Below the pieces are notes generated by a model, which saw only the letters and a list, made by a program, of their open reading frames with translations, did not search any database and was not told the origin of the DNA. From Elusimicrobiota bacterium (GTDB lineage Bacteria > Elusimicrobiota > Elusimicrobia > F11), in NCBI GenBank assembly GCA_046153645.1, contig JBJXGI010000034.1, positions 1 through 64,000 of the forward strand: a DNA stretch of 64,000 bases, written 5' to 3'. This document shows positions 4,299 through 30,118 of this stretch, in pieces. Each line of letters opens with the position of its first letter. The first letter of the stretch is position 1. The position numbers and the translations under genes were made by a program.

Positions 4299-7200
4299 TT
4301 ACGCGTTTTCTTCCACTCTTTTAAAACTATTGAGAAAAATATTCAATTGAAAACGAATCCAACCATCGCGGCGATGAATTATGAGGGAAATAATTTTAGC
4401 CAAGCGCTCACTTGCTTCGAAGATAACAGGTTGACGTGAAATCACGGTAATTTGACCTGTTTTAAAATGGTTATTTTGTAATTCTCTGACTGTTTTTAGT
4501 TTTGCGGCATTTGGATTTGTCAAAACCTCGTTATAACTATACAAACCTGTCATTTTATTTTTCTTTAGATTGTTGATAGGAACAATAACCATGTGTTTTT
4601 TTCGATTGTATTTTTTCATTATATTGACCACATCTTTTTCTGTTTTTTCAGAAACAATCAAAATAAGATCCTGCTTTTTACTTATTTTTTTGAGTTTTAA
4701 CATTGAATTTAAATCTAAAACATCTTCTTTTGTATTGATATGAACAATACTAAGGGAACCGCTTGTTCCGTCAAAGGCGTGGGCAATGTCAAGGCTTGTT
4801 GGTATTTGCCCCTCGAGTTGCTCCAAAATTAATTCTAAGGAGTCGGAGTTTTCATTAATCATATTCATCGGTAACTCAATCGTAGGTGGGAATGCTTGTT
4901 TTCGTGTGAAAAAATTGTAAGCAGAATGAAGAGCGCCCATAAAAATATAGGAGAGTGTGACAGTCAATTCAGGGGATAAAGAGGGGAGAAAAAACGGAAG
5001 AAAATAAGTAAAGGCCATACCACCGGCCCCAATACCGATAGCAAGCAAGAGGAGTTTGATCCTTTGAGAAATGAACCAACCCCACTGCGATGATGTGTTT
5101 TTCCCAATGAAAAGTTTTGGGTGAATGAGAGTGGCAAAGAGTCCGGCATAAATAAAAACAGCTTCCCAGTGGGAGATCGTTCCCAAAAAAACAGGCAACA
5201 CAAAACTGAATATTATCCAGCGCCCAAGTGAATCTTCTAAAAACCCACCAACCGCCGTTATTCTATTAAGCCATTTGGATTCTGATTGAGTATTTTTACC
5301 CATCCAAGTGTAGATTATGCTTAAGGGATTAAAAATAGAAAGAGCTTGAGGATTTTTAGAGTGAGTTAAACGGCGTAATTTTTCCAATGCTTTTGATTGA
5401 TATTTGGATATGTTTGACTGCGTAATACCCAGATCACTAGCGATTTCTTGTTGGGTTTTATTAAGAATAAAGTAGTCATACAAAATCTTGGCGTAACGAT
5501 GTCCCAATAGCTTTTCTAGTTGATGTTGGTAAGTTTGTACTGTTTTTTTGTCAGAGGGTTTATTATCTGATTTGATAAGTTTACGTAGTTCGGCGATTGC
5601 ATATGTTTGTCGTTTGGAGATGTTTGCCTGAGAGACATTTTCATTCTCAGCAATTTGTTTTTGAGTTTTTTCTTCTATAAATCGTTCAAGTAAAACTTTT
5701 TGGTAGAGGGGTTTGAGTTCTTTTAATCGATGTTCATTAGACCGTACCAAATCATGATCTGATATTTCATTTGGTTTAATTAATTTGTTTAGTTGTTTGA
5801 GCGCATTTGATAGTTGATCACGAAGAGCTTCAACAGTGATCCCTCTTTTAGCAGCCATTTTTTTTAGAGATTTCTTCGCAATAAAATGATCTTTCAAAAT
5901 ATCTCGATAGGACGTTTTTAGTTTATTTACAACAGCTAAATGAGTTTTAACGAATTGAGCATTCGAATCCTCATTTGAGTCGACTAGTTTCCTTAGATTT
6001 TTGAGCCCAATAAATTCCCGACTTTTAATGGTTTTATTAGAAACCTTTTTTTTGTCGGCAATAAATTGGAGAGTTTTTTCTTCAACAAAGCGAAGGTATA
6101 AAACTTCAGCATGAGAGGGCTTTAATTCATCCAAGCGTTTCAAATGGGTTAAAACGAACTGACGATCCGATGGTTCATCTGATTGGATTAGTTTTTTTAG
6201 ACGTTTTAAAGCCGTAGAAAGCATAGAACGAATGGCGGGTGGTGTTACTCCTTTTTCTTCCGCAATCTCTCTCAAAGCGCTTCCTTTAATAAAATGGCGA
6301 TATAAAACATCTGAGTGGGATGATTGCAGTTCTTTTAAACGGTGTTGGTTTGCCTTAACCATGTCGCTGTTCTCAGAATCAGCCAATTTTTTTGTTTTCT
6401 GCTTTTTAATTTGAATAGCGCTTGGTTTTTTCTCCCGGGCGAGTATTGTGTTTTCTTGTCTTAGCAACGTCGTTTTTTGAGAACCTTTAATAATATGCGG
6501 CGCTTTTTTTTCTAATTCGATTCGTCCTTTTGCCAACAATCTTTCATAGAGTTGATTTCCAGGCCAGATTTTGAAATTTTCCACAATAAAAACATCGGTA
6601 TCGTCCGCAGAAACTGGGTGTTGAAAAGTGCTGGTTTCTTCTGATGCGGTAGAATAACCATCAGCGATAATTTTCCGTATTCTTTCTTTGGTAAGGTTCA
6701 ATAGTTTTCCGATGGCTTCTAAAGTATAAGTTTCTCCATTTTTAGTCCCTATTCCAAAACGCAACTTCAAAATAATTTGATCTCGAGGTGTCAAGGCGGA
6801 TAAAACTTTTAAAACTTCCTCTTGATCTGTCATATGAATTTCAGAGCCTTTTTGGATTTCCTCAAATCCAGCGTCCAATGAATTAGTTTTCAGTGGAATC
6901 GAACGCAGCTGCTGTACTTTTTCAACTGAAAGCCCCATTTTTTCAGCTATTTCATCATTGGTTGGTTCACGATTTAATTGATTTCGTAATTGTTTTTTAA
7001 TTTTCTCAAGAAGATTAAGTTCTTTATCGAGATATTGTGGAATCCAAATTGTTTTTTCTTTTCGATATCCTTGTCGCATTGACTCTATAATCCAATCTTT
7101 TGCATAGGTAATAAAAACATAGCCTAATTGAGAATCAAATTTATCGATGGCTTTCATAAGGCCAATCACTCCATCTGCAGCTGCCTCTTCTTTATCTCTT

Positions 7201-9779
7201 CGATTTGATTGTTTTGCCAAGAACATAACGAAGTAAGTATATTTTTCAACTAAAAAATTACGAAGTAACATGTGATCCATTGGAGGTAAATTTTTGGCAC
7301 GTAAGGCATGAAATAAATCTTTTTCTTCTGTTTTGGTTAGTTTTTCTCCTGCGGTTGCCATGGTGGTTTTTATAGTTTTTATGTCAACGTTATAATCTTT
7401 TACTGTCGCAGCATTAGCTGGTTTTTTCTTTTTAAGAAGACTGATATCACCCGCAAACCCGAGAACCCATCCTCGCTTTTGAGCGATGAGATTATAGATA
7501 GCATGGAGAAAACCCATGAAGATATAAGAAGAACTTGGGAAAAAATATGCAAAACCCATGCCCCCTATGCCAATTCCAATAGCAAGTAAGAAAAGTATGA
7601 GTCTTTGAGGAATAAACCATCCCCATTCAGATGATATGTTTTTTCCTATAAAAATTTTTGGGTGAAGCACTGTTGCAAAAAGACTGGCGTAAACAAAAAC
7701 GGTAACCCAAGGAGAAAGTATTCCAAAGAGAAGGGGAAAAGCAAAAGTGAGAATAAGCCAGCGTGTGATAAATTCTTCGAAAAATCCACCGATTACAATT
7801 ATTCCGCGCCGCCATTTGGAATTGGGATCCGCATATTGTCTGACCAAAACATAAACCAAAGACAAGGGGCTTAGGATAGACGAGAGAAGAATTCGTAATC
7901 CAAGCTTAAGTAAATGAGAGGGGGGAAATCGAATGTGTTTTATCTCAACTTCAACTATTTCACCATGGGATACCTTTAGGGAAATTTCTTTACTGCCTTG
8001 GGGGCCGCTTAATTTGATACTAAAAGGGTTGTTACGGGTTGAAATATCTTCTGCCGTATCTAAGGTATGGGGGTTAAGGGCGCGCAGTGTTTTATTGGAA
8101 TTTTTATGCTCGAGTGCGGCTCCTAAAATGGCGCCTCCCGGGAGACTTGTGGCGATGGGTGGCGATAAAAATAATTTATCGCCATGAAAAAGTTTATCAA
8201 GCGGAGTTTTTTCTTGAGAAAAGACGCTTAAGTAAGAAGTACCTTTCCCTATATCTATTTTTGTTATTTTGGGAGTAAATTGAATGACAGTGTACCCGGC
8301 ATCAATCAATTTCTTTTCGATCCCAGTAGAATGGAAACCGCCAGTCACAAGAATTGATATTGAAGGCGTACTTGGTTTTTTAAGGACATTTTTTAGGAAG
8401 TTATTTGCCATCTTTTGATCTCGAATTTCTGCTTCATGGTAAAAATTTTCAAAAGGTTCTAATAATTTTTTCTCTTCATTAAGAATTGGGGCCTGGGGCC
8501 TTTGTTCTATTGCTTGATATTCCTCCCATTCTCGTTTTGTTAGTTCAAAATTTATTAATTTTTTAATGAGGTAAAGTTTACGGCATTTATCTACATGCCA
8601 TTTTTCTTGGGGTGTTTTCACCAGCGATTCATATGAATTTTTTTCTGCTAAGTTCATTTCTCTCATTAACTCATCAGAGTCAATGCTTTCTGAATGAAGG
8701 ATGTAAGTAATGTAATCTTTCAGGGCTGGGAATTTTTTAATTTCAAAACCGTGTTTGGTACATAGGTTTTCTGTGTATTGATAAAAATGAGTTCGACTTA
8801 TTTTCAATTGTTTAAAAGCCTTGGCGAATTCAAGTAGTTCGTTTGTTTCATCTTTGGTTAATCGAGGTGTGAGTTGAGAAAGAAGTCGTGTTTGTTCTCT
8901 CTCTACCTGTTCGAAGTTAAGATAAGACTCAATGTGCCGTGCTTGGAGAAATATGTTTATGTGTGCCATCATTCTTTGAGAGGGCATGTTTTTAGAAAGA
9001 TAAGACAAGTAGTCACCCATTGAAATTCTTTGACTTCTGTATTTTTCAACAACCACGTCAAATTTGGCTAATTCAGAATTAAAAATTCCAGCTTTTTCAT
9101 TTTCAAAACTTGCTTTGATTTGAGCTAAATTAATGTTGATGTCATTTTGTTTGTGTTTGGCAAGTTGATAGGCCTTTACATGAGCGATGTAATGTTTTTT
9201 GTCGTCAATACCAATAACAAGAGGCGGGTTGTTTTTAAAAGTAGAAACATTCTGAGGAGTCAGTGTCATTAAGGCTCGGATGGGGCCTGAAATTTTATTC
9301 TCCCGAAAGAGATAATTTGCGATTTTGTTGACTGTCTCTCTCCTTGGGAATTGTTGAAAGGGATGGAGGTTGATAGGGCCAAAGCCGCCTTCAAGTCCAA
9401 TAAAATCTACTTTCCCATTTTTGACCAAGGCTTGAATCAATGCGCCAATGTTTTTTTGTGCTTCTAAGTTCATATGAACATCTTGAATATGGATCACCAT
9501 TTGACCTGTTGTCGGTTGGGACGCCCTTGGGTTGAGATATTTATTGATTCTTCCATAAGCTGATAAATCAATGGTTTCTCCTGTGATCGTGAGATTTTTA
9601 TTTTTTGAATTTTTGAGAATGGTTGTTTCGATTTTCGGGAGGTTTGTGATCTGTGCGGTGAGAAACTTTTGTCGTTCATTCCAGATATTTGTTTCTTGAG
9701 AATGTAAAAATAAACAATTGTTGAAAAACAATAAAAACGAAACGATCGTAGACATGGGCTTTGTGATGATCTTCAGCAT
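4299..9779 (-). CDS. Giant modular membrane protein 1: signal peptide, EreA/ChaN/TIKI-like domain, CPBP-like module, sigma70 core, five sigma-4 HTH repeats, second CPBP-like module, C-terminal domain
   Basis: 1826-aa ORF. IQDVH/LEG/GGFH motifs. GLMKAIDKFD...FITYA..WI (sigma region 2), REPTNDEIAEKMG (region 3), LTPRDQIILKLRFG...TLEAIG...TKERIRKI (region 4). Duplicated hydrophobic EExxxR...HxxxN block. Confidence 0.85.
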   Translation of the reverse strand: MLKIITKPMSTIVSFLLFFNNCLFLHSQETNIWNERQKFLTAQITNLPKIETTILKNSKNKNLTITGETIDLSAYGRINKYLNPRASQPTTGQMVIHIQDVHMNLEAQKNIGALIQALVKNGKVDFIGLEGGFGPINLHPFQQFPRRETVNKIANYLFRENKISGPIRALMTLTPQNVSTFKNNPPLVIGIDDKKHYIAHVKAYQLAKHKQNDININLAQIKASFENEKAGIFNSELAKFDVVVEKYRSQRISMGDYLSYLSKNMPSQRMMAHINIFLQARHIESYLNFEQVEREQTRLLSQLTPRLTKDETNELLEFAKAFKQLKISRTHFYQYTENLCTKHGFEIKKFPALKDYITYILHSESIDSDELMREMNLAEKNSYESLVKTPQEKWHVDKCRKLYLIKKLINFELTKREWEEYQAIEQRPQAPILNEEKKLLEPFENFYHEAEIRDQKMANNFLKNVLKKPSTPSISILVTGGFHSTGIEKKLIDAGYTVIQFTPKITKIDIGKGTSYLSVFSQEKTPLDKLFHGDKLFLSPPIATSLPGGAILGAALEHKNSNKTLRALNPHTLDTAEDISTRNNPFSIKLSGPQGSKEISLKVSHGEIVEVEIKHIRFPPSHLLKLGLRILLSSILSPLSLVYVLVRQYADPNSKWRRGIIVIGGFFEEFITRWLILTFAFPLLFGILSPWVTVFVYASLFATVLHPKIFIGKNISSEWGWFIPQRLILFLLAIGIGIGGMGFAYFFPSSSYIFMGFLHAIYNLIAQKRGWVLGFAGDISLLKKKKPANAATVKDYNVDIKTIKTTMATAGEKLTKTEEKDLFHALRAKNLPPMDHMLLRNFLVEKYTYFVMFLAKQSNRRDKEEAAADGVIGLMKAIDKFDSQLGYVFITYAKDWIIESMRQGYRKEKTIWIPQYLDKELNLLEKIKKQLRNQLNREPTNDEIAEKMGLSVEKVQQLRSIPLKTNSLDAGFEEIQKGSEIHMTDQEEVLKVLSALTPRDQIILKLRFGIGTKNGETYTLEAIGKLLNLTKERIRKIIADGYSTASEETSTFQHPVSADDTDVFIVENFKIWPGNQLYERLLAKGRIELEKKAPHIIKGSQKTTLLRQENTILAREKKPSAIQIKKQKTKKLADSENSDMVKANQHRLKELQSSHSDVLYRHFIKGSALREIAEEKGVTPPAIRSMLSTALKRLKKLIQSDEPSDRQFVLTHLKRLDELKPSHAEVLYLRFVEEKTLQFIADKKKVSNKTIKSREFIGLKNLRKLVDSNEDSNAQFVKTHLAVVNKLKTSYRDILKDHFIAKKSLKKMAAKRGITVEALRDQLSNALKQLNKLIKPNEISDHDLVRSNEHRLKELKPLYQKVLLERFIEEKTQKQIAENENVSQANISKRQTYAIAELRKLIKSDNKPSDKKTVQTYQHQLEKLLGHRYAKILYDYFILNKTQQEIASDLGITQSNISKYQSKALEKLRRLTHSKNPQALSIFNPLSIIYTWMGKNTQSESKWLNRITAVGGFLEDSLGRWIIFSFVLPVFLGTISHWEAVFIYAGLFATLIHPKLFIGKNTSSQWGWFISQRIKLLLLAIGIGAGGMAFTYFLPFFLPSLSPELTVTLSYIFMGALHSAYNFFTRKQAFPPTIELPMNMINENSDSLELILEQLEGQIPTSLDIAHAFDGTSGSLSIVHINTKEDVLDLNSMLKLKKISKKQDLILIVSEKTEKDVVNIMKKYNRKKHMVIVPINNLKKNKMTGLYSYNEVLTNPNAAKLKTVRELQNNHFKTGQITVISRQPVIFEASERLAKIISLIIHRRDGWIRFQLNIFLNSFKRVEENA
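5370..6365 (-). repeat. Five tandem ~68-aa sigma70 region-4 (HTH) protein repeats inside giant protein 1
   Basis: Unit L..L...H/Y..VL...F....T...IA....V/I.........AL..L.KL recurs five times, starting ELQSSH, ELKPSH, KLKTSY, ELKPLY and KLLGHRY. Confidence 0.85.
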
Positions 9780-9809
9780 ACATTTATTCTAAAAAATGCA
9801 ACCGAAGAA

Positions 9810-9838
9810 CGTCTTAACAGAATGTAAATATTTTGTAA
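9810..9838 (-). promoter_or_regulatory. Conserved upstream tandem-box motif of giant gene 1
   Basis: Minus strand TTACAAAATATTTACATTCTGTTAAGACG starts 59 bp before the ATG. It is 23/29 identical to the motif before giant gene 3. Confidence 0.7.
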
Positions 9839-9886
9839 CTTTTCCGTCGGAGAAATGAATAAAATATGTAAATTAATCCTAAAAAT

Positions 9887-9925
9887 TTACAAATTTGTTT
9901 CAACCTCTTAAGGTGATCTTAATCT
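9887..9925 (+). promoter_or_regulatory. Conserved upstream tandem-box motif of giant gene 2
   Basis: TTACAAATTTGTTTCAACCTCTTAAGGTGATCTTAATCT starts 59 bp before ATG 9946 and aligns without gaps to the leader of giant gene 3. Confidence 0.6.
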
Positions 9926-9945
9926 CGAAACGCGAAAATGAGGGC

Positions 9946-12900
9946 ATGACCTTTTTCAGGCGTTATTTAGCTTTATTGTTGAGTGTTTCCATTTTCTCAA
10001 CTCAATGTGCATTTGTTCATGCCACCGAAATGAATTTATGGGCAGAACGTCGTGCGGTTTCTATCCCTTCTTCGACTCTTTTTGACCATTTTCCTCCAAT
10101 TGAGAAAGTTGTTTCTTCTCTACAGAAATTTCCTTCTTCTCTTAAGCTTTTTGCCCGTGCTGTTCCGCAGACTCGAGCCTCCATTCAAGAGTATTATTCC
10201 TCAGATGATCCACAGGGGCCTGCGGTTGTCATTATCCAAGACATTCATTTAAATGGTGAGGCTCAAAAGAACATTGCTTCTGTTTTGCAGTCGCTTATTG
10301 CGTCTTGTCAAATAGGCGTAATTGGGATTGAAGGCGCCTTTCGTTCGTTTGATTTTTCGCCATTTAAATTATTGCCCGATCAGCACCTGTTAAGATTGGT
10401 CGCTGAATCATTTTTTCATGGGGGAAAACTAATGGCGGCGTCGTATGTTGGTGTTACATCAAATGTGAAAACCCCTTTGTTTGTAGGCGTTGATAATAAA
10501 GCTCATTATGATTTAAATGTAAAAGCCTATCTCGATTCGCAACTCATCAAATCAAAAGCATGGGACGATTTAAATCACGCTCAACAAATATTAGATGTCA
10601 GTAAAAAAAATATTTTTTCCCCTAAACATGTTTACTTTGATCAACTTTATTCTGACTATCACGAAAACCGCATTGGTATTGGCGCCTATGTGGCGGCCTT
10701 AGTAGATTTGGGTGTTAAGCTTAATTCACACTTAAGTCACTTTTCTGAGGTGATCCGACTTGAATCTTCTTTGAATTTTAAACAAGTTGATGTTGAGCGT
10801 CGGATCATCTTGAATTCATTAACTGAAAAATTAACTCGTAGTGAAATGGCTGATTTAACTGAGCACAGCATGTTGTATCGATTGGGCAAAATTGGTTTGG
10901 GCGCTTACTATCGTCATTTAAAGACGCTCTGCAGTGCCAAAGGGGTAAATCTTAATCAAAAACAAGCATTTAATAATTATGTTAGATATGTGCTGCTATC
11001 TGAGAGTATTCAGTCGAAAAATATTTTTGATCACCTTGATCAACTTGAGCAGAAATTGTTTTCTGATTTATCGCGCACGCCTGAACAACGTATCCTCATA
11101 AATGAAAGTCGTCGCCTTCTTTTAGCAAAAAAACTTGTCAACTTATCTCTGACACCCGCAGAATGGAAGGCCTATCAAAATTTGCGTGCTCGCACCCCGG
11201 GTTCCATTCACCTTGACCCATTTGAAAAATTTTACACCGCAGCCGATATTCGCAGTCATTCCATGGTAGAGAATCTATTGGCGCATTCAAAATCTTCAAA
11301 TTCAATGGTTCTTTTAGCTGGTGGTTTTCATTCTCCATTGGTTGGACAATTGTTACGCGAGAAAAAAATATCTTATGTCATCATCACTCCAAAGCTGACC
11401 AAGGTCAATCGTATTTCTGGTAATGATTACTTGTCGGTTCTTGCACGTGAGAAAACACCGCTTGATAAAATATTTCAAGGAGAAAAAGTATGCCTTAAAC
11501 CGCAGATAGGCGAAATTGATCCTGATTCGTCAAGTGGACCGCAGTTGATGGCAAGTACATTGGCACGTATGGGACCCTCTGCGTTGGAAGAGGCACCATA
11601 TGTTGACTTCCCTTATGCTGGTCATAAACTTAGCCTTAAAGTAAATAAAGCCGCTGATCCTTCCGCTGATACTTTTAATTTAAAACACGAACTGAGTGTT
11701 GTTGGAAAAGAATTCGTTCGTTATCATTCGCCCTTTTTCTTGGTAACACTTCTGTATCCAGCACTTCTATCTATGTTCTGGGGCCAAGTCGCACTTGTTG
11801 TGGGTGTTGTGGTCGTATCATTTATTTTTGCTCGAAATCACAAGGCGACACTGAGTCAGAAGATTCTTTTGTTTTTTATTGGAGGTGTGTTGGGGGGCGT
11901 GATGGTGTCTCCGTCTATTGTGGCGTGGGCAGGTCAATGGGTTTTTGTCTTATCGATGGGTTTTCATTTCACCTTTAATTTATTTGTTTGGGCCGTAAAA
12001 AAGATGTCTCGTCGTCCCTTTTTGTTACGCCACGCCTCGTGGTTCGTTCAGTTTGCGCAGTGGTTGCCAAAAGCCTCAGTGGTAGAACCTGATGGAAATC
12101 GAAAAATTATTTTATCTTCAGATGGAACGCGTCTTGGTATTCTAAAAAAATTGTCTGATAGAACTCATTGGTTGCAGTTTCTTTGGGCTCCTATCATGCA
12201 ATTACGGCGCGAATCTAGAATGGACAATCCATTTGAAATTTCTGATTTTCAGTTTCACTCCAATCGTCCGTTTTTTTCCGCAGCTCAATTGAACGAGGAG
12301 GGAAAAGCCACGGGGATGATACTGGTCGATTATAACGCAGATGTTATTCCGGCTCACTATAACTTTGAGGCACCGATAAAGGTTGTTGATTCAAGTTTTG
12401 TTTTTTTAGATGGTACCCAAGACAGAATGATTTGGGCTATTGCAGAACACAATAAAATTCAAATAAATTATTTTGACGGTGTGGGTACTCTTACCAGAAT
12501 AAAAACAATTGATTTTGTTGATCCTGATGACTCTTTTTCGGAAATTAAACTGTCTGATGATGGAACTACCCTTTTCACGAAAACAAAAAAAGGGTGCTTG
12601 AAAATGTGGGAAACAACAGGAGATTCGAAATCACCCATATTTGAAATCCCATCAAAAAAGCAGAACCTTAAGATTGATCATTTCGATGTTTCTTCTTATC
12701 AAAATCATAACCCTTTGATTTTTTCATCAATAGATTCTGAACAAGGCGCGCAGCGTTTACTTGTGGCTTTAGAAAAAATGGTTTTCGTTTCAGATTTAAA
12801 GACGGGGGAAATGCTAGGAGAAGGTTATTTACTTCATGCTCCGCCAACACATGTCTGCCTTTCAGCTGATGGAAGGTTCTTTGCTGTTGCTATTCAAAAT

Positions 12901-15405: not shown

Positions 15406-15409
15406 GTTT

Positions 15410-15820
15410 CTAAGCATTAATTATTAACTTCTTACTTTGGAAACCTAAGAATAAATCGAATTCCTTTAGAACATTTAGTCCAATTAAACCTGCGATTCTT
15501 CTGCTTTCCGGAGGTAAGTTTGCGCAACCAAGTTCAACTTTTTTTAATTCAAAACCAAAGAACTTAATTTTTGGTGCAATTACAATAGGAATATATTCAG
15601 TTCCGCTCGCAGTGATCATTTCGATTTTATTTTTAGGTTTTAATGGGTTTAGCCCCAAAGCAATTGCCGTTGCTATTGAGATTGTTGTGATACTGGAACC
15701 GGTGTCCAATGCCATCAGAAGTGCGTGAGAAGATTGATATCCTTCAATATAAAAACTCGTAACAACTATATGCGTTTTATGGTCTATATTAAGAGGAAAG
15801 AATTGTTTCTTATAATGCAT
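15410..15820 (-). CDS. Retropepsin-like (clan AA) single-domain aspartic protease
   Basis: ALDTGSSITTIS catalytic motif, ITASG, GLIGLNVL. Confidence 0.88.
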   Translation of the reverse strand: MHYKKQFFPLNIDHKTHIVVTSFYIEGYQSSHALLMALDTGSSITTISIATAIALGLNPLKPKNKIEMITASGTEYIPIVIAPKIKFFGFELKKVELGCANLPPESRRIAGLIGLNVLKEFDLFLGFQSKKLIINA

Positions 15821-15986
15821 AAACATATCCTTTAGGAAGAGAATCCTCTGAATGATCTACCATGATGACCCCTTTAGGACCAATAGATTTTCTGTATATA
15901 ACATTCCTGTTTGGATCATGTGCCAATAAAACACCGGCAAGAGGAGTTGTGGTTTTTTCATCAATTTTTGTGAGTCGATCAATTTT
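15810..15986 (-). pseudogene. 5'-truncated remnant of the small partner protein usually encoded upstream of these aspartic proteases (DUF5678-like)
   Basis: My translation KIDRLTKIDEKTTTPLAGVLLAHDPNRNVIYRKSIGPKGVIMVDHSEDSLPKGYVYAL* has a stop overlapping the protease start. An in-frame TGA precedes it and there is no N-terminal start codon. Confidence 0.55.
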
Positions 15987-16031
15987 TCAGATATAATAAT
16001 TAAAATTTTTTATGGAGAGCTAAATATACAT

Positions 16032-16796
16032 ATGAAAAGAAAGTTTTTTTTGTTTGGAATGTTAGGAATTTTAATGGCTTGCGCGACGGTTCCTTATACC
16101 AATCGCAAACAATTTAATTTGATCTCTCCAGGTCAGGAAATGCAATTGGGTGAAGAAGCCTATGCCGATATTCTTAAAAAAACACCTAGGTCTTCTAACC
16201 ATCAATGGACTGAGATGGTTAAGCGAGCTGGAGCAAACATTCAAAGAGTGGCCGAACAACCAGATTTTAAATGGGAATTTAATCTTCTTCAGGGAAAGGA
16301 AGTAAATGCTTTTTGTCTGCCAGGTGGAAAAGTTGCGTTTTGGGATGGCATCATACCGATTTGTAAAGATGAAACGGGTATTGCTGTTGTTATGGGGCAT
16401 GAAGTGGCTCACGCTTTGGCTCGCCATGGGGCAGAACGAATGAGTCAAGGAATGGGAGCACAGATTATTGGTCAAGTGTTATCTCTTGGGCTTGGGAAAG
16501 CAGACCCTGCTGTTCGTGAAAAAACCCTTCAGCTTTATGGTTTAGGGGCTCAAGTGGGTGTTATTCTTCCTTTTAGTCGGGGAAACGAGTCCGAGGCTGA
16601 TCATATTGGTCTTATATTAATGGCCAAGGCAGGGTACGATCCGCGACAAGCTGTTGAGTTTTGGAAAAGAATGGCCGCTCAATCTGGCGGACAAAAACCT
16701 CCTGAGTTTATGTCGACCCATCCCAGTGATGAAACCCGTATTCAACAGTTAGAAAAATGGTTGCCTGAAGCTCTCACATATTACACTGCTAAATAG
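16032..16796 (+). CDS. M48 family Zn metallopeptidase lipoprotein (LoiP/Oma1-like)
   Basis: Lipobox LMAC, NAFCLPGGK, HEVAH, ESEAD, STHPS. Confidence 0.92.
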   Translation: MKRKFFLFGMLGILMACATVPYTNRKQFNLISPGQEMQLGEEAYADILKKTPRSSNHQWTEMVKRAGANIQRVAEQPDFKWEFNLLQGKEVNAFCLPGGKVAFWDGIIPICKDETGIAVVMGHEVAHALARHGAERMSQGMGAQIIGQVLSLGLGKADPAVREKTLQLYGLGAQVGVILPFSRGNESEADHIGLILMAKAGYDPRQAVEFWKRMAAQSGGQKPPEFMSTHPSDETRIQQLEKWLPEALTYYTAK

Positions 16797-16859
16797 AGGT
16801 GTTTTTCATAAGAGTTTATACCTGTTTTTGCACTGAAAAGGGTAAAATAAGCCTATTCA

Positions 16860-18193: not shown

Positions 18194-18196
18194 ATA

Positions 18197-21100: not shown

Positions 21101-21808
21101 GCGAATCAATATCAACAAATCATGCACCAAATCGATCGGTGGTTAGATGTTGATTTGTCTTCACGGCTTCTCCTCGCGCACACTGTTTACGATTTGATTC
21201 GTTATGAAAATGTGGCTTTTGCTGAGCGCTACGTCGAAATTATTTGGAATTTGTATAAAAAAGATCAAAAGAAGTTTAATTTTGAATTGACCAAAAAGAC
21301 CATTTGGAGTTTGTATAAAGTTTTGGCGATCAAAGATGAAGTTTGGGTGGCTCAATTGTTAATCGCGCCTGAGAAATATCAAAGAGATAAAGAGCGTTAT
21401 CAGATAGATGAATCAAGAGGCGATAAAATTTCTTATGTTCATTTTAATCGTCCGCAATTTAATTTTTGGGGAAAATTATTTGAATTTGATTTGGAATCAA
21501 AAGATTGGATGCTTCGAATAATGTCTTATTTTAAGTTTTTGAGAAAAATTCTTCCTCAGTGGCACAAAAAAGAAAAAGAATTTAGAGATTGGTATTTAAA
21601 CCTTATCGAAGGGATCCATTTCACTGATTCACTTTTGGTTTATAAAAACTATTGTGATTTGGCTGATTTGCCTGAAATGGTGAAGGGCTACCGAGAAATA
21701 CGCTACCCGCTTATGAAAGAGGCTCAAGAAAAAGCGATCAAGATTCAGTCTGCGCTTTCTGAAATGTCACCCAAAGAGACTCTTATTCAACCTTTGAAAG
21801 TTTTATAA
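18197..21808 (+). CDS. Indolepyruvate:ferredoxin oxidoreductase, fused alpha/beta subunits with C-terminal extension
   Basis: TGYPGSP, FCPGCPH, GDSTFFHSG TPP motif, TAMTGHQ, CEFCLEC..GCP, GVGGMG, KKGLAIRNGAV, AIKDEVWVA. Confidence 0.9.
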   Translation: MEKLQDSIVFHKQDRIDPRFLKESGFEVFTGNELLVKGFIEAGVGLVTGYPGSPVSDVFDTIHEISPYLAEKGMVAQIANNEALSTARLNGARQAGLRAVSVMKSVGLHVAADALAVGNLMEHHKPAGGAIVVVGDDPWNETTQINSDSRYLSKHLHMPVIEPSSFQELKDWIPLAFKISGNSDLYITYVVTTNQADGGARVQVFSHPELAISQKKQTTLSSEKISIKESVLIPPHTSQREATLEDRFHRALAEANVLALNQWLVPPEDKNFIGFISSGLSAAYLEEVLTRFGLWGKFPVLKLGMTYPIDETKIAELASKVGHIIVVEEKRGFVESQVAEILIHLHQKGVLSDQPALWGKKFPNTEKGFPERRGLNASLIMEILGSLFLKWKDYIPSHSVGLIERELTEILNTKSSSIRVPLRTPTFCPGCPHRDSSAVNLKMKKNFLNKKKPLDIIFHGESGCHSMLQFAPNEGLMQNYSGMGLGGGTGAGMSPFITNKQVVFLGDSTFFHSGLIAISDSVKNNQDITYIILENKTTAMTGHQPTPGNDFDVMDRETDPQDIERVVKGLVPAHVFVKRIDPADRNSYQPLLEETVLKPGVKVIIADKECAITYHRRLNAEKKQTIKEKGYIAREERMNITPEVCEFCLECTRQTGCPGLTIAETPYGKKIATDLSTCVDDGACARTKACPSFEKVIIQRSQAVPPKKSFQINPAELPVVHFEEFGDRWSAYTAGVGGMGAGLVNSVLVRAASLEGKHVTFLDKKGLAIRNGAVYGHIVISKTEPICSPVIPYGKADLLIGLDILESARAVDAELNLRVAHPGRTYGVINRHKHETVLSLMGRESFDPDELEVALQKKIRLGGLLSIDFSDISEEYLGSKLYSNMILLGAAYQKGWIPLEEKNLNEAICLSVRSADRQTNLHAFLLGRYLSCHPDRIKKENLMENFYDLVNQKKEYLKKSSLVFGRVIANQYQQIMHQIDRWLDVDLSSRLLLAHTVYDLIRYENVAFAERYVEIIWNLYKKDQKKFNFELTKKTIWSLYKVLAIKDEVWVAQLLIAPEKYQRDKERYQIDESRGDKISYVHFNRPQFNFWGKLFEFDLESKDWMLRIMSYFKFLRKILPQWHKKEKEFRDWYLNLIEGIHFTDSLLVYKNYCDLADLPEMVKGYREIRYPLMKEAQEKAIKIQSALSEMSPKETLIQPLKVL

Positions 21809-22320
21809 CTTAAAAAAGCAATAATTGTTTTTGAGTCTTTAATTTTCCCTGAACGAATAGCGTTATATACTTTTTTTATTGGCCAAACTTTAGCGTTTAA
21901 GAATTCATCTTCATCTGGATTCAAGTGGCCTTTTGTCAGTTTTTTAGCGATATAGATATGGATAATTTCATTAGCAAATGCCGCTGTTGGCCAAAAAGAT
22001 AATAACTTCGTTAAATGATTGCTTTTAAAACCAGTTTCTTCTTCCAATTCTCTTTTGGCGCATGAAAGTAAAGGTTCTTTATTATCAAGTTTTCCGGCTG
22101 GAATTTCCCAGGTTTCTTCTTGGACAGGATAACGATATTGTCTGACCAGAACGACATGATTTTTATCGATGAATGGAATGATTCCAACAGCGCCCGGGTG
22201 ATTTAAGTATTCACGGGTGGCCTTTTTATGGTTGGGAAGTTTAATTTCATCAATTCTAAATCCCACGGCGCGGCCTTGAACTTCTTTTAAACGTTTTAGA
22301 AAAATTTCTTTTAGTTTCAT
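21787..22320 (-). CDS. NUDIX hydrolase, ADP-ribose pyrophosphatase-like
   Basis: REYLNHPGAV, RQYRYP, EIPAGKLD..E....AKRELEEETG. GAGGAG RBS before ATG 22320. Confidence 0.9.
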   Translation of the reverse strand: MKLKEIFLKRLKEVQGRAVGFRIDEIKLPNHKKATREYLNHPGAVGIIPFIDKNHVVLVRQYRYPVQEETWEIPAGKLDNKEPLLSCAKRELEEETGFKSNHLTKLLSFWPTAAFANEIIHIYIAKKLTKGHLNPDEDEFLNAKVWPIKKVYNAIRSGKIKDSKTIIAFLSYKTFKG

Positions 22321-22381
22321 GGGGTCTCCTCTAATAATATGAGGAATTGAATTTAACATTTTTTAAAAATTGAGGTGATAT

Positions 22382-22966
22382 ATGAAAATAATTAATAAGT
22401 ATGGGATCCTAATTCTTTTTACCGGTTTTCTGGGCGGTTTTGTTAAAGCCGAGGAAGTTAAATCTGCACGTTCTATTGATGATATTCTCACTCAATCTAA
22501 ATTTCGTCAAAAAATTTTCACCGTGGGTGTTGTTAAAAAACCTCTGAATTTCGATGATTTTATTGTTTCCAGTGATCAAGGAACTTTGGTTTTAGTTCGA
22601 TTCAAAGGAATAAAACAAGATTTAAAAACGGGAGATAAAATATTTGTCTATGGCCGTCATTTAGGTCGCCCCGCTTTGCCCGGAGTCAAACTTGAAATAG
22701 AAGCAATTGAATATGCGCTTGATACAAAAACAGAAAATCGTGATGCCCTTCTTTCTAAATATGGAGTTCCTGTTCCCATCGAAGTGCCTGTCATAAAATC
22801 AACTGAAACCGTAAGTATCACCCCTGTCGTTACCGAAGCAGAATCTACCAACGACTCGTCATTCATAGAAAAGCGCCTTATGAGATTGGATGGTTTGAAA
22901 CAAAAAGGACTTATATCAGAAGATGAATATAAGGCTCAAAGGAAAAGAATTTTAGAGAGCTTATGA
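22382..22966 (+). CDS. Exported hypothetical protein with OB-fold-like region and C-terminal SHOCT domain
   Basis: Signal peptide. C-terminal RLMRLDGLKQKGLISEDEYKAQRKRIL is the SHOCT pattern. Confidence 0.7.
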   Translation: MKIINKYGILILFTGFLGGFVKAEEVKSARSIDDILTQSKFRQKIFTVGVVKKPLNFDDFIVSSDQGTLVLVRFKGIKQDLKTGDKIFVYGRHLGRPALPGVKLEIEAIEYALDTKTENRDALLSKYGVPVPIEVPVIKSTETVSITPVVTEAESTNDSSFIEKRLMRLDGLKQKGLISEDEYKAQRKRILESL

Positions 22967-23016
22967 TGACTTACCGGTGATTAGAAAAAGCCTGTCGAAA
23001 AAGAAAGTCTCCAATC

Positions 23017-23195
23017 CGTCATTCCGGCCCCCATATTTATAAACGAAGCAAGAGAAAATAAGAGAATAAGCCGGAATCCAGCCGTTCCCCAGAAATACTG
23101 GGAATTTTCATGGGCAAATAATAAGTAAATTTTTTAGCCGGAAGCGGGTTTCTTTGACGGTCTAAAGCCTGGATTCCGGCCTTCGCCGGAATGAC
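23017..23195. repeat. CGTC-tagged nested palindromic (REP/RPE/MITE-like) element
   Basis: GTCATTCCGGC (23018-28) pairs with GCCGGAATGAC (23185-95). Inner GCCGGAATCCAG (23070-81) pairs with CTGGATTCCGGC (23169-80). Confidence 0.8.
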
Positions 23196-23236
23196 AATGA
23201 AAAATAGGCTTTATTTCCCGACTGGCTCAAAAAAGT

Positions 23237-23273
23237 TTACAAGAAATTTACCATCTTTTAAGTCGAAATTAAG
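23237..23273 (+). promoter_or_regulatory. Conserved upstream tandem-box motif of giant gene 3
   Basis: TTACAAGAAATTTACCATCTTTTAAGTCGAAATTAAG starts 60 bp before the ATG. A TAAAAT hexamer lies 7 bp before the ATG. Confidence 0.7.
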
Positions 23274-23296
23274 CTCTCTATCTTAAAATTGAGAGC

Positions 23297-26200: not shown

Positions 26201-29200
26201 ACGAGAAACATGGTGCGCAATACCCGGGACAAGTGGATGTTGAACGCTCACAGCGTTCACGTCATCGTCGTTGTCGAAGGAGAAATCGTTTTCAAAATCC
26301 GCGACAAGGATACTGCCGGCGGTGACGACCAAGTGGATGGGGCCGTCGGACACACAGAAGTAAAGGAGGATGGAGAACCTGAAATGCTGGAGGAGACGGC
26401 TTTTCGTGTCCTCGGGGAAGAATTTTTTAGAATGACTGCTGATCAATTGAAAGAAACCAAGGGAAAGTTTTTGCGCGAAGCTCAGAAAAACGGAGACCTT
26501 CAGCTCGTTCGCGTCGGAAAGCCGGGCATGTTCGCCAATATCAGAAAATTGGTGATTCGACCGGATGGTTCAATCTTCACGGTTCCCCTTGGTCACGAAG
26601 ATGATGAGGACTGGTCCAGCCAAGGCAGCGTCGTGGAGGTTCCTTTCGAGACCGCTGATCTTTGTTTGGCGGTGATGCCGCGTAAGTTGGCGGAGGCGGG
26701 CGGATCCTTTCGCCAGAAAACCTTCGACGAATGGTTGGAAGAATTTCGATCAGGCCAGATTGTTCTTGGTCCATCCGCCAAGAATCTTTTCGGTCTCGCC
26801 AAGACGCTGGATCCGGCCCTGCCAAATGTCGTTCGGACGAAGCTCATGAAGTTGACGGAGACATCAGGTGATGTCGACTTCAGCTTCTCTCTCGGCGGCT
26901 CTAATGAATTTACCGTCGAAACGCATTCGCGTTTGCACAGCGAAGGAAAGTTCTCCGAGGTTCTTCAACTCATCGGCAACGAGCTTGGGCTCAAAGCCGA
27001 CGGCCGTGGATATTTCAACTTTCGTGAGTGCGTTAAACAGCGTGGTTTCAGTGGTTTCATTCGAAACGGGCGCACGACGCTGGAATTGTTACCGGACGGA
27101 ACGCTCGTTATTATCGATCCGCGCTTCGGCGATGACCACGTGTCGCGCGGCGACCGAACCATTTTTACCCGCACACGGGTCAAGGCCCAGCATAAAATTT
27201 CGGAAGCGAGATCTTGGGCTGCATTCGCCATTGAACAAGGCCTCGCTAAGAGCGCTTCGGAACCGTGGGCGTCAAAATTGTACGCCTGGATAAGAGGCAT
27301 TTCAGTTAAAGATTGGGATCGCCGTTTGGAGTTTCGTGTGTTGCCGCGGCGCTATAACCTTGTTCGAGAGAAGTACCGTGAGTTTCACGAAAGAGCTCTT
27401 CGAGAAGAACAGAATGCCTTCGAGAAACTCTATAACCGTGTTTTGAAATCGGTTCGCCACCTGCAGGGCAAGTTGGGCAAACAAAAGGTCCACATTTTCG
27501 TCGACCAATCCACGGTCCTCTCGATTCTCGACTTGATTTTCTCGGAGAACATTTCATGGAGAAAGGCCGTCGGTGCTTGGTTGCGTGACGTTCGCCGGCG
27601 GTGGTGGGAGTTGAAGCGTTTTCCCGGCGCCGAGAATTCCCCCAATGCCTCTCCGGCCAAGAATGGCCACGGTTTCAATGATCCCGTCGTTTTCTCGAGC
27701 GAAAGTGGTCTCGCTCAGTCGCAAGTAGGCGAAGACCCTGCCGATGCGCGAGCGCATCAGGTGGCCGTCGAGGTGAACAAAAAACTTCGAGGACGTGTTT
27801 TAAGCAGGGTAAGCAGGGCCTACGCGAATAGTGATTTGCGTCAGCTGCCGCACTTTAACCTCGACGGCAAGAGAACGTCGTTCGAGATCACCGATCATTC
27901 GCCAAATGAATTGCCGACGCTTTGTCGAATCGGCGACCGTATTTTCATCTTCCTGCCCAAACATAAATTTGTGGATATTGGAAAGGTCGTGCACCTGTTC
28001 GATAAAAGCGGTCTTATTTTCTTCGCGCTGCCCGCTGATCTCGCTGGTTTTTTGCGCCACAGGAAAAATCCCGAGGAGTGGGACACGGAAACGATTGGAC
28101 AGGAGATCGATGACATAAAGAAAATATTGGGCGACATCTACGTCCAAAACCAAGCAAACATCATTTTCACGAACGCCGATCCCTACGACCGGAGGATATT
28201 TTCCGGAACGGAATATCTTAGTCACCTTCTTGACCACCAGCAGGATTCGGCGGACGCGATAAAGGAGAAGGAGTTGGAAGTTCCATCGACGCCCTCAATT
28301 CCCGAGTTGCCGGCTGAGATGGTGGTGAATGCCGCGCCGATGGACGCGACAAAGGGGTTGGAAGATTTACCCGACGCCCGCGAGTCTCTTGCCTACCTCG
28401 ACCTCCTAGTAAATAAGCCGGGTTTTTCAGCAAAGGTACCGCTTATGCCGAAGCCATCAATTCCCAAGCCGCCGGTCGAGGAGATGTCGGTTACCGCTTT
28501 TGGTGGATACTATTTCTCCTTGCCTTCCCATAAACCGACAGCCGAGGCCTTGCGCGCTTTTCTCCGTCAAATCAAGTTTGAAAACCATGGCGAAATATTC
28601 GAATTCTTGATGGGTGGCAAACCGCGACTTCTATCTGACCTGGTGAAACTGTTGGGGTTGTCCAATGAAGAGACCATCCTTGATCTCGCTGCGGAGGGTT
28701 TTTTCCTTATAGATCGCCAATGGCGTGTGCAAATGGCCGGCGAAACGTTGACATCAACTCGAGGTGTGGACGGCCGGGAGGTTTTCTTGTTTGCGAAGAA
28801 GCACTCGTTCGTAAGGACGCAGCCCGGAGCGGCGGGGTTCTGGAAGACGTGGTTTGGCTGGACGAATCTTTATTGGATCGGCGTGGTAGAAGGAATTATT
28901 TTACAAGCTGGATTTATTCGATACGTCGCTGTGTCGTGGGCGCAGGCGCCGCCGATTCCGCTTTTACTGGAAGCTTGGTTGTTCCTTTTCATCTCCGTCT
29001 ATCTGATTCATTTTTTTACGGGCGTGATTCGCGCCGATGGTGAGGTTATCCACTACGATCCTTATCTCTCCTTCCAGGCCACGCTTACCGCGCAGTGGAG
29101 TTTTGTTCCGATTCTCGGTCCGTTTTTGCATGGATGGGCGAATACGCGGGCTGCGGCACGCCAAGCCGATAAGTCTGATGATATCACCGCTTTTGTCGAC

Positions 29201-30118
29201 CGAAATTTCGTTTTGAGCCCGGCGGATCGCCGGCGTGTTGATGAGATTGTAGCTGACATCGGGCCTTTGCAGCGCGACTTCTCGCGCGGGTTTGACCCCA
29301 ACGATATCGACATGGTCATGATTGGCCGACGGTTCGTGGCGCAGTTGGAAGTGATGAGAGAAGAACATGCGGAGAACGGACACTCCGGCAGGCTCAAGGC
29401 CATGGCGCGTAATGCCGCTTATCTCGCCGGGCGACTGGGGACGGGTTTCTCAATGGTGTGGGAGAGGATGGAGGAGACTTACGGCACCAACCAACCAGTT
29501 TTGTCTTTGGTTATGCGTTGGGCATACTTGAGTGGCCGACTCGGACAACGGCGACGGAATTTCGAGATGTTGTTGAATCATGGCGCGAATTTTTTACTCC
29601 GCTTGGCGCGCTTACGAAAGCCCGATGCGAAAATCGCTCATGCCGATGATATTTTGCGTGGCGCCGAGAACGATCCGGACATTGAAGCATCGCTGTCGTT
29701 CATTTTGAACATGGCCATCAAAGGCAAGCGGCCGAGTGGACTGATTATTCGTAGCATTCTTGGAGAGAACCCAGACTTGTTGAAAGGAGCGCTAAAGAAG
29801 CGCCTGATCGATTTCGCTGAAGGCCACGACAAGGCAGATGTGATGCGCCGATATCTGGATGATCAATCAGGTTTGGGCGTCATCGTCGTCTTGCCGATGG
29901 ACATCATTCGCGTGGAAGACGTGGTGAAAGCGGCACGGCAAGATCCGCGGTGGACGCATGGCTCCCATCCGCGGTTGTCCATTTATTCCACCATGCCAGA
30001 GCAATTCGACATGGTCAGTCGAATTACCGGTATCGTCTACGCTATATTGGCTGGTTCCAAGGTGATCCCCGTGTCGATATTGGTAGAAGGCGCGAGAGTT
30101 ATTGGGAAGCAGGCGTAG
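23297..30118 (+). CDS. Giant modular membrane protein 3 (GC-rich): signal peptide, EreA/ChaN/TIKI-like domain, degenerate CPBP-like module, NUDIX-like and unknown cargo, second CPBP-like module, C-terminal domain
   Basis: 2273-aa ORF. IQDVH/LEG/GGFH/REKTPLEKIF are shared with the two paralogs. Hydrophobic blocks end in HYGRN and HGWAN. HSVHV...GAVGH...ETAFRVLGEE is NUDIX-like. Confidence 0.8.
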   Translation: MKNLNSQPSLFHRLCASFLVVVLFLSGTVFAHNLETNIWEDRRRKTSAASQLASLPQVRIFDSTLRHFQRSSPSLRLPVGLNDRSLIADLQKNGVIRDVKNGSGPFTVIYIQDVHGHAEAQRNIAGMILSVLARHPKATIGLEGASGPISLHAFRVSTPEINKQIGSFLLNTAIITGAEYAGFAAALTPRMIGIEDAPLYVENVEALRSALAGQASALDQKNADDRQLSERKRQEYSVALISLNAQREAYENGQEGLGTYLAALSRVQPGAVASFKNIDLFLKTWTLESTLDFDRAERERKEFFLHLVPALTKEQLDNLSARGLALRTGDLRYPDFYAFLKTLAAQSGLSLSSTPTFDRYVNYTLQADSIRAETLFSEIPVFEDRVWRALCTNSRQREIYEASVAAGLTGKLLKLKLTAEEWEQAKKRASTELQAFPSFAAFYRAAEARNAALASRFETVRVESPEKVSVVLAGGFHSAGLTALIARDATVITVSPKLSTENRSFDNEYLNVFTREKTPLEKIFEAPKISIVMTLATKSIRNTAGQILNGMSLVLVTLIDPLAEALGKLSAQTVASSARGPIYVSVTTNGGRMESDPKSPPLLEGVVTGEVKARVWATTEGKKLTKEQIMGRVWGTEYWHSLPTLTSAWAVAVFTRISGFSLTTQLLAALVAGLIGLIWAVRKIRDQHRVTHNVEGLRQVTPILIFYGIVSLVVFLAAYAATFNVTWLDPKIAILLAVGAGFLVYQGLHYGRNLKAINDSSIAPLATTGVHFIDVRNLRFGDVPAQAIENAFARPEALGGPQRRLLSEKWVGHDRVLTLYEVTEEGGRPAPYFRKEGKVDRPEAYQVFHMRRPEQHPFLPRELTEIFFGKALYDHVKRANLVGVLNNLIGRIRENRFLMISTDNDLQLLRLLAVIQHSVAFRWDEILRRKQGAVEDQTVPVKFPVGYDSDGNLVMKWLRDEDDRIMPLTRNMVRNTRDKWMLNAHSVHVIVVVEGEIVFKIRDKDTAGGDDQVDGAVGHTEVKEDGEPEMLEETAFRVLGEEFFRMTADQLKETKGKFLREAQKNGDLQLVRVGKPGMFANIRKLVIRPDGSIFTVPLGHEDDEDWSSQGSVVEVPFETADLCLAVMPRKLAEAGGSFRQKTFDEWLEEFRSGQIVLGPSAKNLFGLAKTLDPALPNVVRTKLMKLTETSGDVDFSFSLGGSNEFTVETHSRLHSEGKFSEVLQLIGNELGLKADGRGYFNFRECVKQRGFSGFIRNGRTTLELLPDGTLVIIDPRFGDDHVSRGDRTIFTRTRVKAQHKISEARSWAAFAIEQGLAKSASEPWASKLYAWIRGISVKDWDRRLEFRVLPRRYNLVREKYREFHERALREEQNAFEKLYNRVLKSVRHLQGKLGKQKVHIFVDQSTVLSILDLIFSENISWRKAVGAWLRDVRRRWWELKRFPGAENSPNASPAKNGHGFNDPVVFSSESGLAQSQVGEDPADARAHQVAVEVNKKLRGRVLSRVSRAYANSDLRQLPHFNLDGKRTSFEITDHSPNELPTLCRIGDRIFIFLPKHKFVDIGKVVHLFDKSGLIFFALPADLAGFLRHRKNPEEWDTETIGQEIDDIKKILGDIYVQNQANIIFTNADPYDRRIFSGTEYLSHLLDHQQDSADAIKEKELEVPSTPSIPELPAEMVVNAAPMDATKGLEDLPDARESLAYLDLLVNKPGFSAKVPLMPKPSIPKPPVEEMSVTAFGGYYFSLPSHKPTAEALRAFLRQIKFENHGEIFEFLMGGKPRLLSDLVKLLGLSNEETILDLAAEGFFLIDRQWRVQMAGETLTSTRGVDGREVFLFAKKHSFVRTQPGAAGFWKTWFGWTNLYWIGVVEGIILQAGFIRYVAVSWAQAPPIPLLLEAWLFLFISVYLIHFFTGVIRADGEVIHYDPYLSFQATLTAQWSFVPILGPFLHGWANTRAAARQADKSDDITAFVDRNFVLSPADRRRVDEIVADIGPLQRDFSRGFDPNDIDMVMIGRRFVAQLEVMREEHAENGHSGRLKAMARNAAYLAGRLGTGFSMVWERMEETYGTNQPVLSLVMRWAYLSGRLGQRRRNFEMLLNHGANFLLRLARLRKPDAKIAHADDILRGAENDPDIEASLSFILNMAIKGKRPSGLIIRSILGENPDLLKGALKKRLIDFAEGHDKADVMRRYLDDQSGLGVIVVLPMDIIRVEDVVKAARQDPRWTHGSHPRLSIYSTMPEQFDMVSRITGIVYAILAGSKVIPVSILVEGARVIGKQA

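Follow-up and report, generated by a model that had tools for sequence, protein, structure and literature searches.

What is encoded by three unusually long genes with similar beginnings and different ends in a genome of the Elusimicrobiota? The genes, labelled here P0001, P0002 and P0003, lie between positions 4,299 and 30,118 of the window, a stretch of 64,000 nucleotides (nt) which forms the start of contig JBJXGI010000034.1 in the assembly GCA_046153645.1 (GTDB lineage Elusimicrobiota; Elusimicrobia; F11). The original prediction, made from the letters alone, described three giant membrane proteins in which a constant chassis carries swappable cargo. Our computational analysis places them, very probably, in a very large, lineage-restricted family of giant modular inner-membrane proteins with constant and variable parts (Table 1). 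The constant parts are most probably four: a Sec-type signal peptide with an exported head of ~530 amino acids (aa), a first membrane bundle, an upstream element TTACA-N17-TAAG, and an amphipathic C-terminus ending in alanine.

A common head in a large family

The N-termini of the three window proteins align across about 540–640 residues. Pairwise BLASTP gave 31% identity over 638 columns for P0001 and P0002 (E 6e-78), and 28% identity both for P0001 and P0003 (E 8e-49) and for P0002 and P0003 (E 2e-50), which bears out the collinear N-terminus of the original prediction. The motifs picked out at that time are conserved columns in an alignment of 34 paralogous heads. In each window protein a signal-peptide-like segment stops 2–4 residues ahead of the conserved E-x-N-[IL]-W-x-[ED]-R. 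A family of three was far too small a number. With the P0001 head as query, 56 matches were found in the home assembly (2.63 Mb, 105 contigs, 99.7% complete), and a hidden Markov model of the three window heads detected 48 head-bearing open reading frames (ORFs), which total 106,369 aa and take up 12.2% of the genome's bases. Both 48 and 12.2% are underestimates, because at least two head-bearing genes run on across contigs (exact 41-residue overlaps). The head is present in 41 of the 90 genome ORFs of 1,000 aa or more, and head-bearing ORFs range from fragments to 10,179 aa. The longest (C86:11312-41851, minus strand) contains nine repeated five-helix membrane clusters, spaced 450–700 aa apart (residues 4818–9500), and also AAA_5 and VWA domains.

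Outside the home genome, a profile of the 34 heads matched 9,794 representative protein clusters at E<=1e-3 and 6,549 at E<=1e-30, out of 1.84 billion; the head is N-terminal in all 150 clusters listed from this search. Family proteins are mostly 1,000–5,000 aa long. Sampling of the phylum revealed matches in 62 of 201 genomes and 32 of 77 genera, with open frames of up to 11,814 aa, and the head was detected in none of the 58 genomes of one family of small genomes. A pattern search of genome contigs gave 325 matches, 293 of which encode relatives; the best 80 of the 325 loci all come from Elusimicrobia or Elusimicrobiota metagenome-assembled genomes, including Ca. Obscuribacterium magneticum. 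Every source name given for external members was either Elusimicrobia or 'bacterium F11'. Soluble head-only proteins (signal peptide plus head, 560–600 aa, no membrane helix), which do not have the junction stretch TPLDKLF-x-G-x-KLFL, were found in three other families of the phylum. The home sequence occurs at low depth in four DNA sequencing runs of one study, whose short contigs are 99+% identical to it with no variation seen; no RNA run was found to contain the window stretch.

The head domain and the membrane modules behind it

The head had been likened to the EreA/ChaN/Tiki fold, an assignment that is supported at the sequence level. No Pfam match above threshold was obtained for the three window heads; all three match PF04187 (Cofac_haem_bdg, 'Tiki superfamily, ChaN') below its gathering threshold of 27.7 bits (E 0.0014, 0.062 and 0.021; 13.7–19.1 bits). 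Among the 34 heads, 16 match PF04187 at E<=0.1 (best 4.1e-6), 15 match a PAH-type helical domain in mid-head, one matches Erythro_esteras and one TIGR00261 (E 0.0099). When the home genome was scanned with PF04187, all nine matches fell within heads, two of them just above the cut-off (28.1 and 30 bits, neighbouring matches included). Several external members match this model at 2.7e-5 to 4.3e-4. The PF04187 matches fall on profile positions ~40–204. NCBIfam gave no head model for the 34 heads, only scattered single chance-level matches, and in the ESM Atlas the head resembles unnamed clusters of 540–669 aa for which Omnitrophota is the commonest phylum (score 0.91).

Invariant columns of the 34-paralog alignment (P0001 numbering) are W33, R36, D100, H102, A107, Q108, E130, G131, G190, E284, Y356, Y359, W418, F446, Y447, R453, G480, G481, H483 and P503. 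The D-x-H, E, R, H set is invariant in 34 of 34 paralogs, and D100, H102, Q108, E130, R453, G481, H483 and P503 are kept in all 215 external proteins with a full head. The spacing is +28 from D100-x-H102 to E130 and +30 from R453 to H483. According to the accessible part of PMC6254334, the catalytic set of RRSP is E3900-x-H3902, E3930 (+28), R4001 and H4030 (+29), and the Tiki set consists of 2His/2Glu and a conserved basic residue. The head is like the Tiki superfamily (ChaN/PF04187, erythromycin esterases PF05139 including Bcr135/136, Tiki, RRSP, TraB/PrgY/GumN) in the order and spacing of acid-x-His, Glu, Arg and His, and in being an exported domain beside a membrane anchor. PrgY has this same layout. 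The family head differs from the superfamily in its first acid, which is Asp instead of the Glu of RRSP, in being the N-terminus of very long proteins, and in being about twice as large, by an insertion of ~250 largely helical residues between E130 and R453. Taken at sequence level, these features support the head as a divergent member of the Tiki/ChaN/erythromycin-esterase superfamily. Its most conserved 15 residues (516–530, YLSVFxxEKTPLDKL) lie at the junction to the membrane part.

In nearly all members a group of membrane helices comes directly after the head, with more such groups further along the chain. By sequence, the hydrophobic modules behind the head are not one family. With jackhmmer the P0001 module was linked only to its own second copy, that of P0002 only to the 10,179-aa paralog, and that of P0003 only to one other ORF; no further match to the P0001 membrane modules was found in 200 other genomes of the phylum. 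P0001 has the motifs EExxxR, FxxxH and HxxxN in order in both of its modules. The same ordered motifs, placed in helices, mark CPBP/Rce1-like intramembrane glutamic proteases (PF02517) and are also present in one paralog. Against PF02517 (cut-off 22.4 bits) the two P0001 modules score 16.8 and 14.2 bits, below cut-off (E 0.0086 for the first), and the post-head bundles of two other paralogs score above it. Among 40 post-head segments, matches to Rce1-like proteases were found in three (best 6.6e-6), to Peptidase_M50 in one and to M50B in one, the last two with HExxH. A rhomboid domain lies further along the chain of one external member.

An HxxxN closing the hydrophobic module had been described for the window proteins. 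All three have it, and in P0002 and P0003 it is the only CPBP motif kept; across the family the His is kept in 25 of 40 aligned segments and H...N/D in 18. A stricter count in hydrophobic context gave 13 of 42, against 2 of 42 on reversed sequences. These modules differ from known CPBP proteases in being fused between an exported hydrolase and a giant tail, and in that most paralogs retain the last His alone or nothing. 'Intramembrane-protease-like first bundle, often degenerate' appears a fair description of part of the family, and not of a uniform chassis element. A model of P0001 residues 464–794 was poor (mean pLDDT 66.6, pTM 0.25), and with it Foldseek against the PDB returned nothing at E<=0.001, while VIA-align wide gave only generic long-helix rows (Z<=5.6).

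By hand reading, the helix number is odd in each window protein and the K/R-rich loops fall on the would-be cytoplasmic side, where the tail would then begin; the three CPBP motifs of P0001 stand at helix ends on that side. The active site of Rce1 faces the cytoplasm, in agreement with this placement. The tails would most likely lie mainly on the cytoplasmic side, chiefly because of the nature of their modules.

Variable tails and two further constant elements

Variable C-terminal content had been expected, and the tails do differ in the window, among the paralogs and among the external members. The tails of 41 paralogs were scanned with Pfam (26 at E<=1e-5, 15 at E<=1e-3), and most showed no domain behind the head. 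Those detected were sigma-70 (three paralogs), cNMP-binding, HATPase_c, propellers, AAA_5 (three), metallophosphatase, two methyltransferases, SNF2 helicase, SF1 helicase, UDPGP and VWA. External members carry S8, cytidine deaminase, hexokinase with GH18, adenylate kinase, GT4 with PPDK_N, radical SAM, FBPase, PfkB with Pro_dh, Aldedh (387 bits) and ECH, DUF89, and PALP with GNAT, all behind residue ~640. The cargo proposed for the window proteins was recovered in part. Sigma-70 regions 2, 3 and 4 of P0001 exceed the Pfam thresholds (Sigma70_r2 27.9 bits, r3 53.9 bits, r4 165 bits in five stretches). After this complete sigma-70, residues ~1130–1470 (window ~5370–6390, minus strand) hold tandem region-4 copies of ~70 aa each, an unusual helix-turn-helix array. 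The WD40-like propeller (best E 1.9e-6) and the M23 segment (E 1.9e-5; 25.2 bits, below the 28.7 cut-off) of P0002 are weak but plausible. On excised segments no Pfam match at E<=1 was obtained for GNAT in P0002 or for NUDIX in P0003; for NUDIX a weak language-model lead was obtained (0.78 in the ESM Atlas, where the P0003 tail scores 0.78–0.80).

Judged by sequence comparison, the tails are fast-changing mosaics. In the five closest genomes, each with many heads, the tails of P0002 and P0003 had no match at E<=1e-5, and that of P0001 matched ordinary sigma factors only. Seven giants from a genome of the same family (G148) share 40–46% identity with home members; the similarity is confined to the head, in some cases extended by the first bundle, and to one tail block of 178 aa. 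Within the home genome, a membrane-associated block of ~170 aa recurs in five ORFs at up to 59% identity, and three paralogs share the final ~150 aa of P0001 as their own C-terminus. Searched against 5.8 billion clusters, the P0003 tail found only itself. This blank reflects the limits of the search, because local BLAST detected three collinear blocks of 34–35% identity in common with the paralog C39:5017-11439 (minus strand). That paralog, a 2,140-aa ORF cut at the contig end, contains a Polysacc_lyase_14 domain (E 6e-61), of a type that is usually extracytoplasmic.

At 52.4%, the G+C content of P0003 stands above that of the flanking DNA (37.6%) and of the genome (39.0%). The change is abrupt at the ORF borders, and no repeats were found in the flanks. 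The P0003 head is 55% identical to the head of a paralog at the end of contig C41. P0003 appears to have come, as a whole gene, from a relative richer in G+C, and to have entered a genome in which its subfamily was already represented.

One TTACA-N17-TAAG element precedes each window gene. Of the 26 occurrences of this pattern on the two strands of the genome, ten precede the conserved Trp codon of a family gene by 146–234 nt; when the second box was altered, in two variants of the pattern, none of the 40 occurrences stood upstream of a family gene. In two other genera, 3 of 7 and 6 of 7 heads of known position have the element directly upstream. There it is the placement and not the number that stands out, because total counts are no higher than those of the reversed pattern. 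In a genome from another family of the class (G062) the element is often tandem (TTACAA, short spacer, TTTACAA, short spacer, CTTAAG), more suggestive of a repeated binding site than of a plain promoter. General promoter and terminator scans found promoter-like sites at chance level.

Alanine is the C-terminal residue in 30 of 32 complete members, against 88 of 1,388 (6.3%) other ORFs of 200–999 aa. Among external members of 1,000 aa or more, some of them cut at contig ends, 147 of 203 end in Ala. Ahead of the terminal Ala the sequence is amphipathic, hydrophobic at -15, -12, -11, -8, -5 and -4 and with R/K at -7. The transfer-messenger RNA tag of the organism is ADQELALAA; that the Ala-ended tail resembles a C-terminal degradation tag should be taken as a lead only. 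The idea of a constant chassis with swappable cargo fits the head, the upstream element and the end of the tail, whereas the membrane module fits it loosely.

No recurring small partner gene was found beside the giants. The sole recurrent neighbour encodes an AAA_14/DUF4143 ATPase (~400 aa), of which 13 copies are present in the genome, six within 1.2 kb of a giant (contigs C100, C18, C29 and C31). The retropepsin-like gene next to P0002 was considered as a partner of the giants and set aside, with only two copies in the genome (the other is C8:8703-9263). An Rfam scan detected a tRNA only.

Table 1. Coordinates of the giant genes, their recognisable parts and adjoining features in the window
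Feature	Position	Strand	Description
P0001	4299..9779	-	1826 aa; signal peptide; Tiki-like head (about residues 29–560); first transmembrane helix and CPBP-like core ~620–770; sigma-70 regions 2–4 at 844–1040; more region-4 repeats to ~1470; second CPBP-like core ~1500–1630; C-terminal domain of ~150 aa, end ...EENA
P0001 head	8100..9695	-	residues 29–560; invariant W33, R36, D100, H102, Q108, E130, R453, G480, G481, H483, P503
P0001 first membrane module	7410..7922	-	EEFITR, FATVLH, HAIYN (three CPBP/Rce1-type motifs)
P0001 sigma-70 regions 2–4	6630..7292	-	38% identity to the genome's own 587-aa RpoD-like gene
P0001 second CPBP-like module	4860..5342	-	EDSLGR, FATLIH, HSAYN; 54% identity to first module
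Region with TTACA-N17-TAAG elements, P0001/P0002	9780..9945 (divergent intergenic)		one per gene; 155 and 152 nt upstream of conserved Trp codon
P0002	9895..15405	+	1836 aa from TTG, alternative ATG at 9946; signal peptide; head; three-to-four-helix bundle closing in HFTFN then WLPKASVV; weak WD40-like propeller; weak M23-like segment; ~600 aa without Pfam match; end ...LKAA
Retropepsin-like aspartyl protease	15410..15826	-	138 aa; gag-asp_proteas E 1.9e-10; tail to tail with P0002
NUDIX gene, separate	21787..22359	-	beside SHOCT gene
SHOCT-domain protein	22382..22966	+	194 aa; just upstream of P0003
Region with TTACA-N17-TAAG element, P0003	23100..23296	+	174 nt upstream of conserved Trp codon
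P0003	23297..30118	+	2273 aa; signal peptide; head; bundle closing in HYGRN; ~1,500 aa without Pfam match; second bundle ~1860–1950; end ...GKQA

Possible roles of the giant proteins

We favour a reading in which the head would be an active periplasmic hydrolase whose action is local or in cis; the intact catalytic set of each copy would then be accounted for. The proteins would tether cytoplasmic modules to the membrane, and at least some members may free them by juxtamembrane or intramembrane proteolysis. The recognisable tail content of cytoplasmic type includes sigma-70, cNMP-binding, HATPase, AAA_5, helicases, methyltransferases, adenylate kinase, hexokinase and Pro_dh with Aldedh. P0001 would be the clearest case, a membrane-sequestered sigma factor released by cleavage, because its sigma-70 module stands between two CPBP modules with complete motifs and the active sites of Rce1 face the cytoplasm. 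We give this explanation as a whole, anatomy and mechanism together, a probability of about 40%; the release of modules by cleavage is its doubtful step.

Several observations weigh against this explanation. TraB/PrgY/GumN (PF01963) was matched neither in the home genome nor in any of 81 genomes of the phylum, while six control genomes were matched. Aligned to E. coli YbaP with hhalign, the 34-head alignment reached a probability of 0.6%, and a sequence-profile search of the PDB with the head returned no chain of the Tiki family. An Rce1 or M50 match is absent from 35 of 40 first bundles, full CPBP motifs are found in only 3 of 48, and no junction or cleavage motif common to the tails was found, no 5- or 6-mer occurring in more than five proteins. 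A crude family-wide count of K+R gave 3.1 before the first bundle and 2.5 after it (p=0.095), so that a head-out, tail-in orientation is unsupported by it. Some members contain domains that are usually extracytoplasmic (S8, GH18, PL14, VWA, propellers). Signal-peptide-plus-transmembrane giants of Omnitrophota are read, in the available part of a 2026 preprint (10.64898/2026.06.07.730766), as having their content outside the cytoplasm.

The proteins might instead be static membrane scaffolds, which are never cut and hold many enzymes and regulators at the inner membrane of a small cell, with the head working on a periplasmic substrate (peptide, ester or envelope component) unlinked to the tail. 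The scarcity of protease motifs in first bundles and the want of common junction motifs are in line with this, the soluble head-only forms of other lineages imply that the head can work alone, and giants of Omnitrophota have been described, as far as the accessible texts go, as membrane-anchored multi-enzyme proteins (10.64898/2026.06.07.730766; 10.1101/2023.11.21.568195). Scaffolds would leave unexplained why ~45 copies per genome each have an intact catalytic head, why the C-terminal Ala is family-wide, and why the sigma factor of P0001 is bracketed by two complete sets of CPBP motifs. We regard the scaffold explanation as possible, though on the unlikely side.

A conflict or host-interaction arsenal seems improbable. 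It would consist of fast-evolving effectors against phages or other cells, like polymorphic toxins or the giants proposed for predatory Omnitrophota. The extreme turnover of tails fits it, with the P0002 and P0003 tails unmatched in close relatives, heads of the same-family genome having almost no tail similarity to go with their identity, and blocks shuffled between paralogs; so do the apparent transfer of P0003, the 6 of 13 AAA_14/DUF4143 genes beside giants, and content that recurs in conflict systems (SNF2 and SF1 helicases, methyltransferases, deaminase, GT4-conflict). But the PADLOC matches, found in 5 of 16 proteins, were all of a generic domain-level kind, many modules belong to ordinary metabolism, such as the PutA-like module and adenylate kinase, and no immunity-like partner gene recurs. 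The sigma factor, helicases, methyltransferases, kinases and PutA-like enzymes of the tails, together with the many internal membrane bundles, which are hard to square with export, argue against export of the polymorphic-toxin type. Membership in a polymorphic toxin system was likewise rejected: in such systems a variable toxin is C-terminal, an immunity gene adjacent and the export route a dedicated one, whereas the giants keep their extreme C-terminus and vary internally, largely in metabolic or regulatory content, and no small neighbour gene recurs. Transmembrane sensors, in which binding or cleavage of a periplasmic ligand by the head controls the cytoplasmic modules allosterically, as in one-polypeptide receptors, would suit the order of exported domain, membrane bundle and cytoplasmic output and the signalling modules of some tails (sigma-70, cNMP-binding, HATPase_c), but are very improbable, as the catalytic sets are too alike for ~45 different signals and most tails are enzymes or unknown sequence with no known signalling outputs.

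The closest published comparison is with the giants of Omnitrophota (West-Roberts et al., 2023, preprint 10.1101/2023.11.21.568195; Seymour et al., 2023, PMC10066038; the 2026 preprint cited above). In the available parts of these sources they are likewise very long membrane proteins with few annotated domains, among which PPDK_N, NUDIX, AAA_5, HATPase_c, radical SAM and HEAT recur. The present family differs in coming from Elusimicrobiota and in its length, mostly 1,000–5,000 aa. West-Roberts et al. state, in the accessible portion, that the N-terminal regions of giants generally have no identifiable domains, and a word search found neither 'Tiki' nor 'TraB' in the texts of the 2023 (10.1101/2023.11.21.568195) and 2026 preprints. 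Elusimicrobia are named, in the available part of PMC11573180, among the phyla prone to proteins over 5,000 aa. In the literature searched on Elusimicrobia giants, Omnitrophota transmembrane giants, Tiki-family/PF04187 and Elusimicrobiota polyproteins, with supplements outside the search, no description of the head family was found. The combination of a Tiki-superfamily-like hydrolase with membrane-protease-like modules in this giant modular layout would also appear to be undescribed.

For P0001 a further parallel may be drawn. Sigma factors are controlled by regulated intramembrane proteolysis in the systems RsiW/PrsW/RasP, RseA/DegS/RseP and pro-sigma-K/SpoIVFB. By analogy, P0001 would place a sigma factor at the membrane next to intramembrane-protease-like modules; it differs in that sigma factor, anchor and candidate proteases are in one polypeptide, with no separate anti-sigma. 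A far-reaching and quite speculative extension is that of a 'tethered proteome', in which dozens of enzymes and regulators per cell would be kept as membrane-locked precursors under one promoter type, self-contained and co-regulated. The Tiki-type periplasmic protease would make the first cut and the intramembrane-protease-like bundle the second, and the Ala-ended C-terminus would serve as a tag for an unfoldase in the cytoplasm. In response to an envelope signal, an entire set of activities could be released or destroyed together, and sigma-containing members such as P0001 might in turn act on the TTACA-N17-TAAG promoters of the family. We hold this to be very unlikely.

About an eighth of a small genome and some ten thousand public protein clusters belong to a family that is named by no domain library. 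The head offers a concrete, mutable candidate active site, and the upstream element and the Ala-ended tail are two further handles. With its sigma factor between two protease-like membrane modules, P0001 is a simple testable case. If one member were understood, a large share of the 'dark' giant genes in the Elusimicrobiota would receive a first interpretation.

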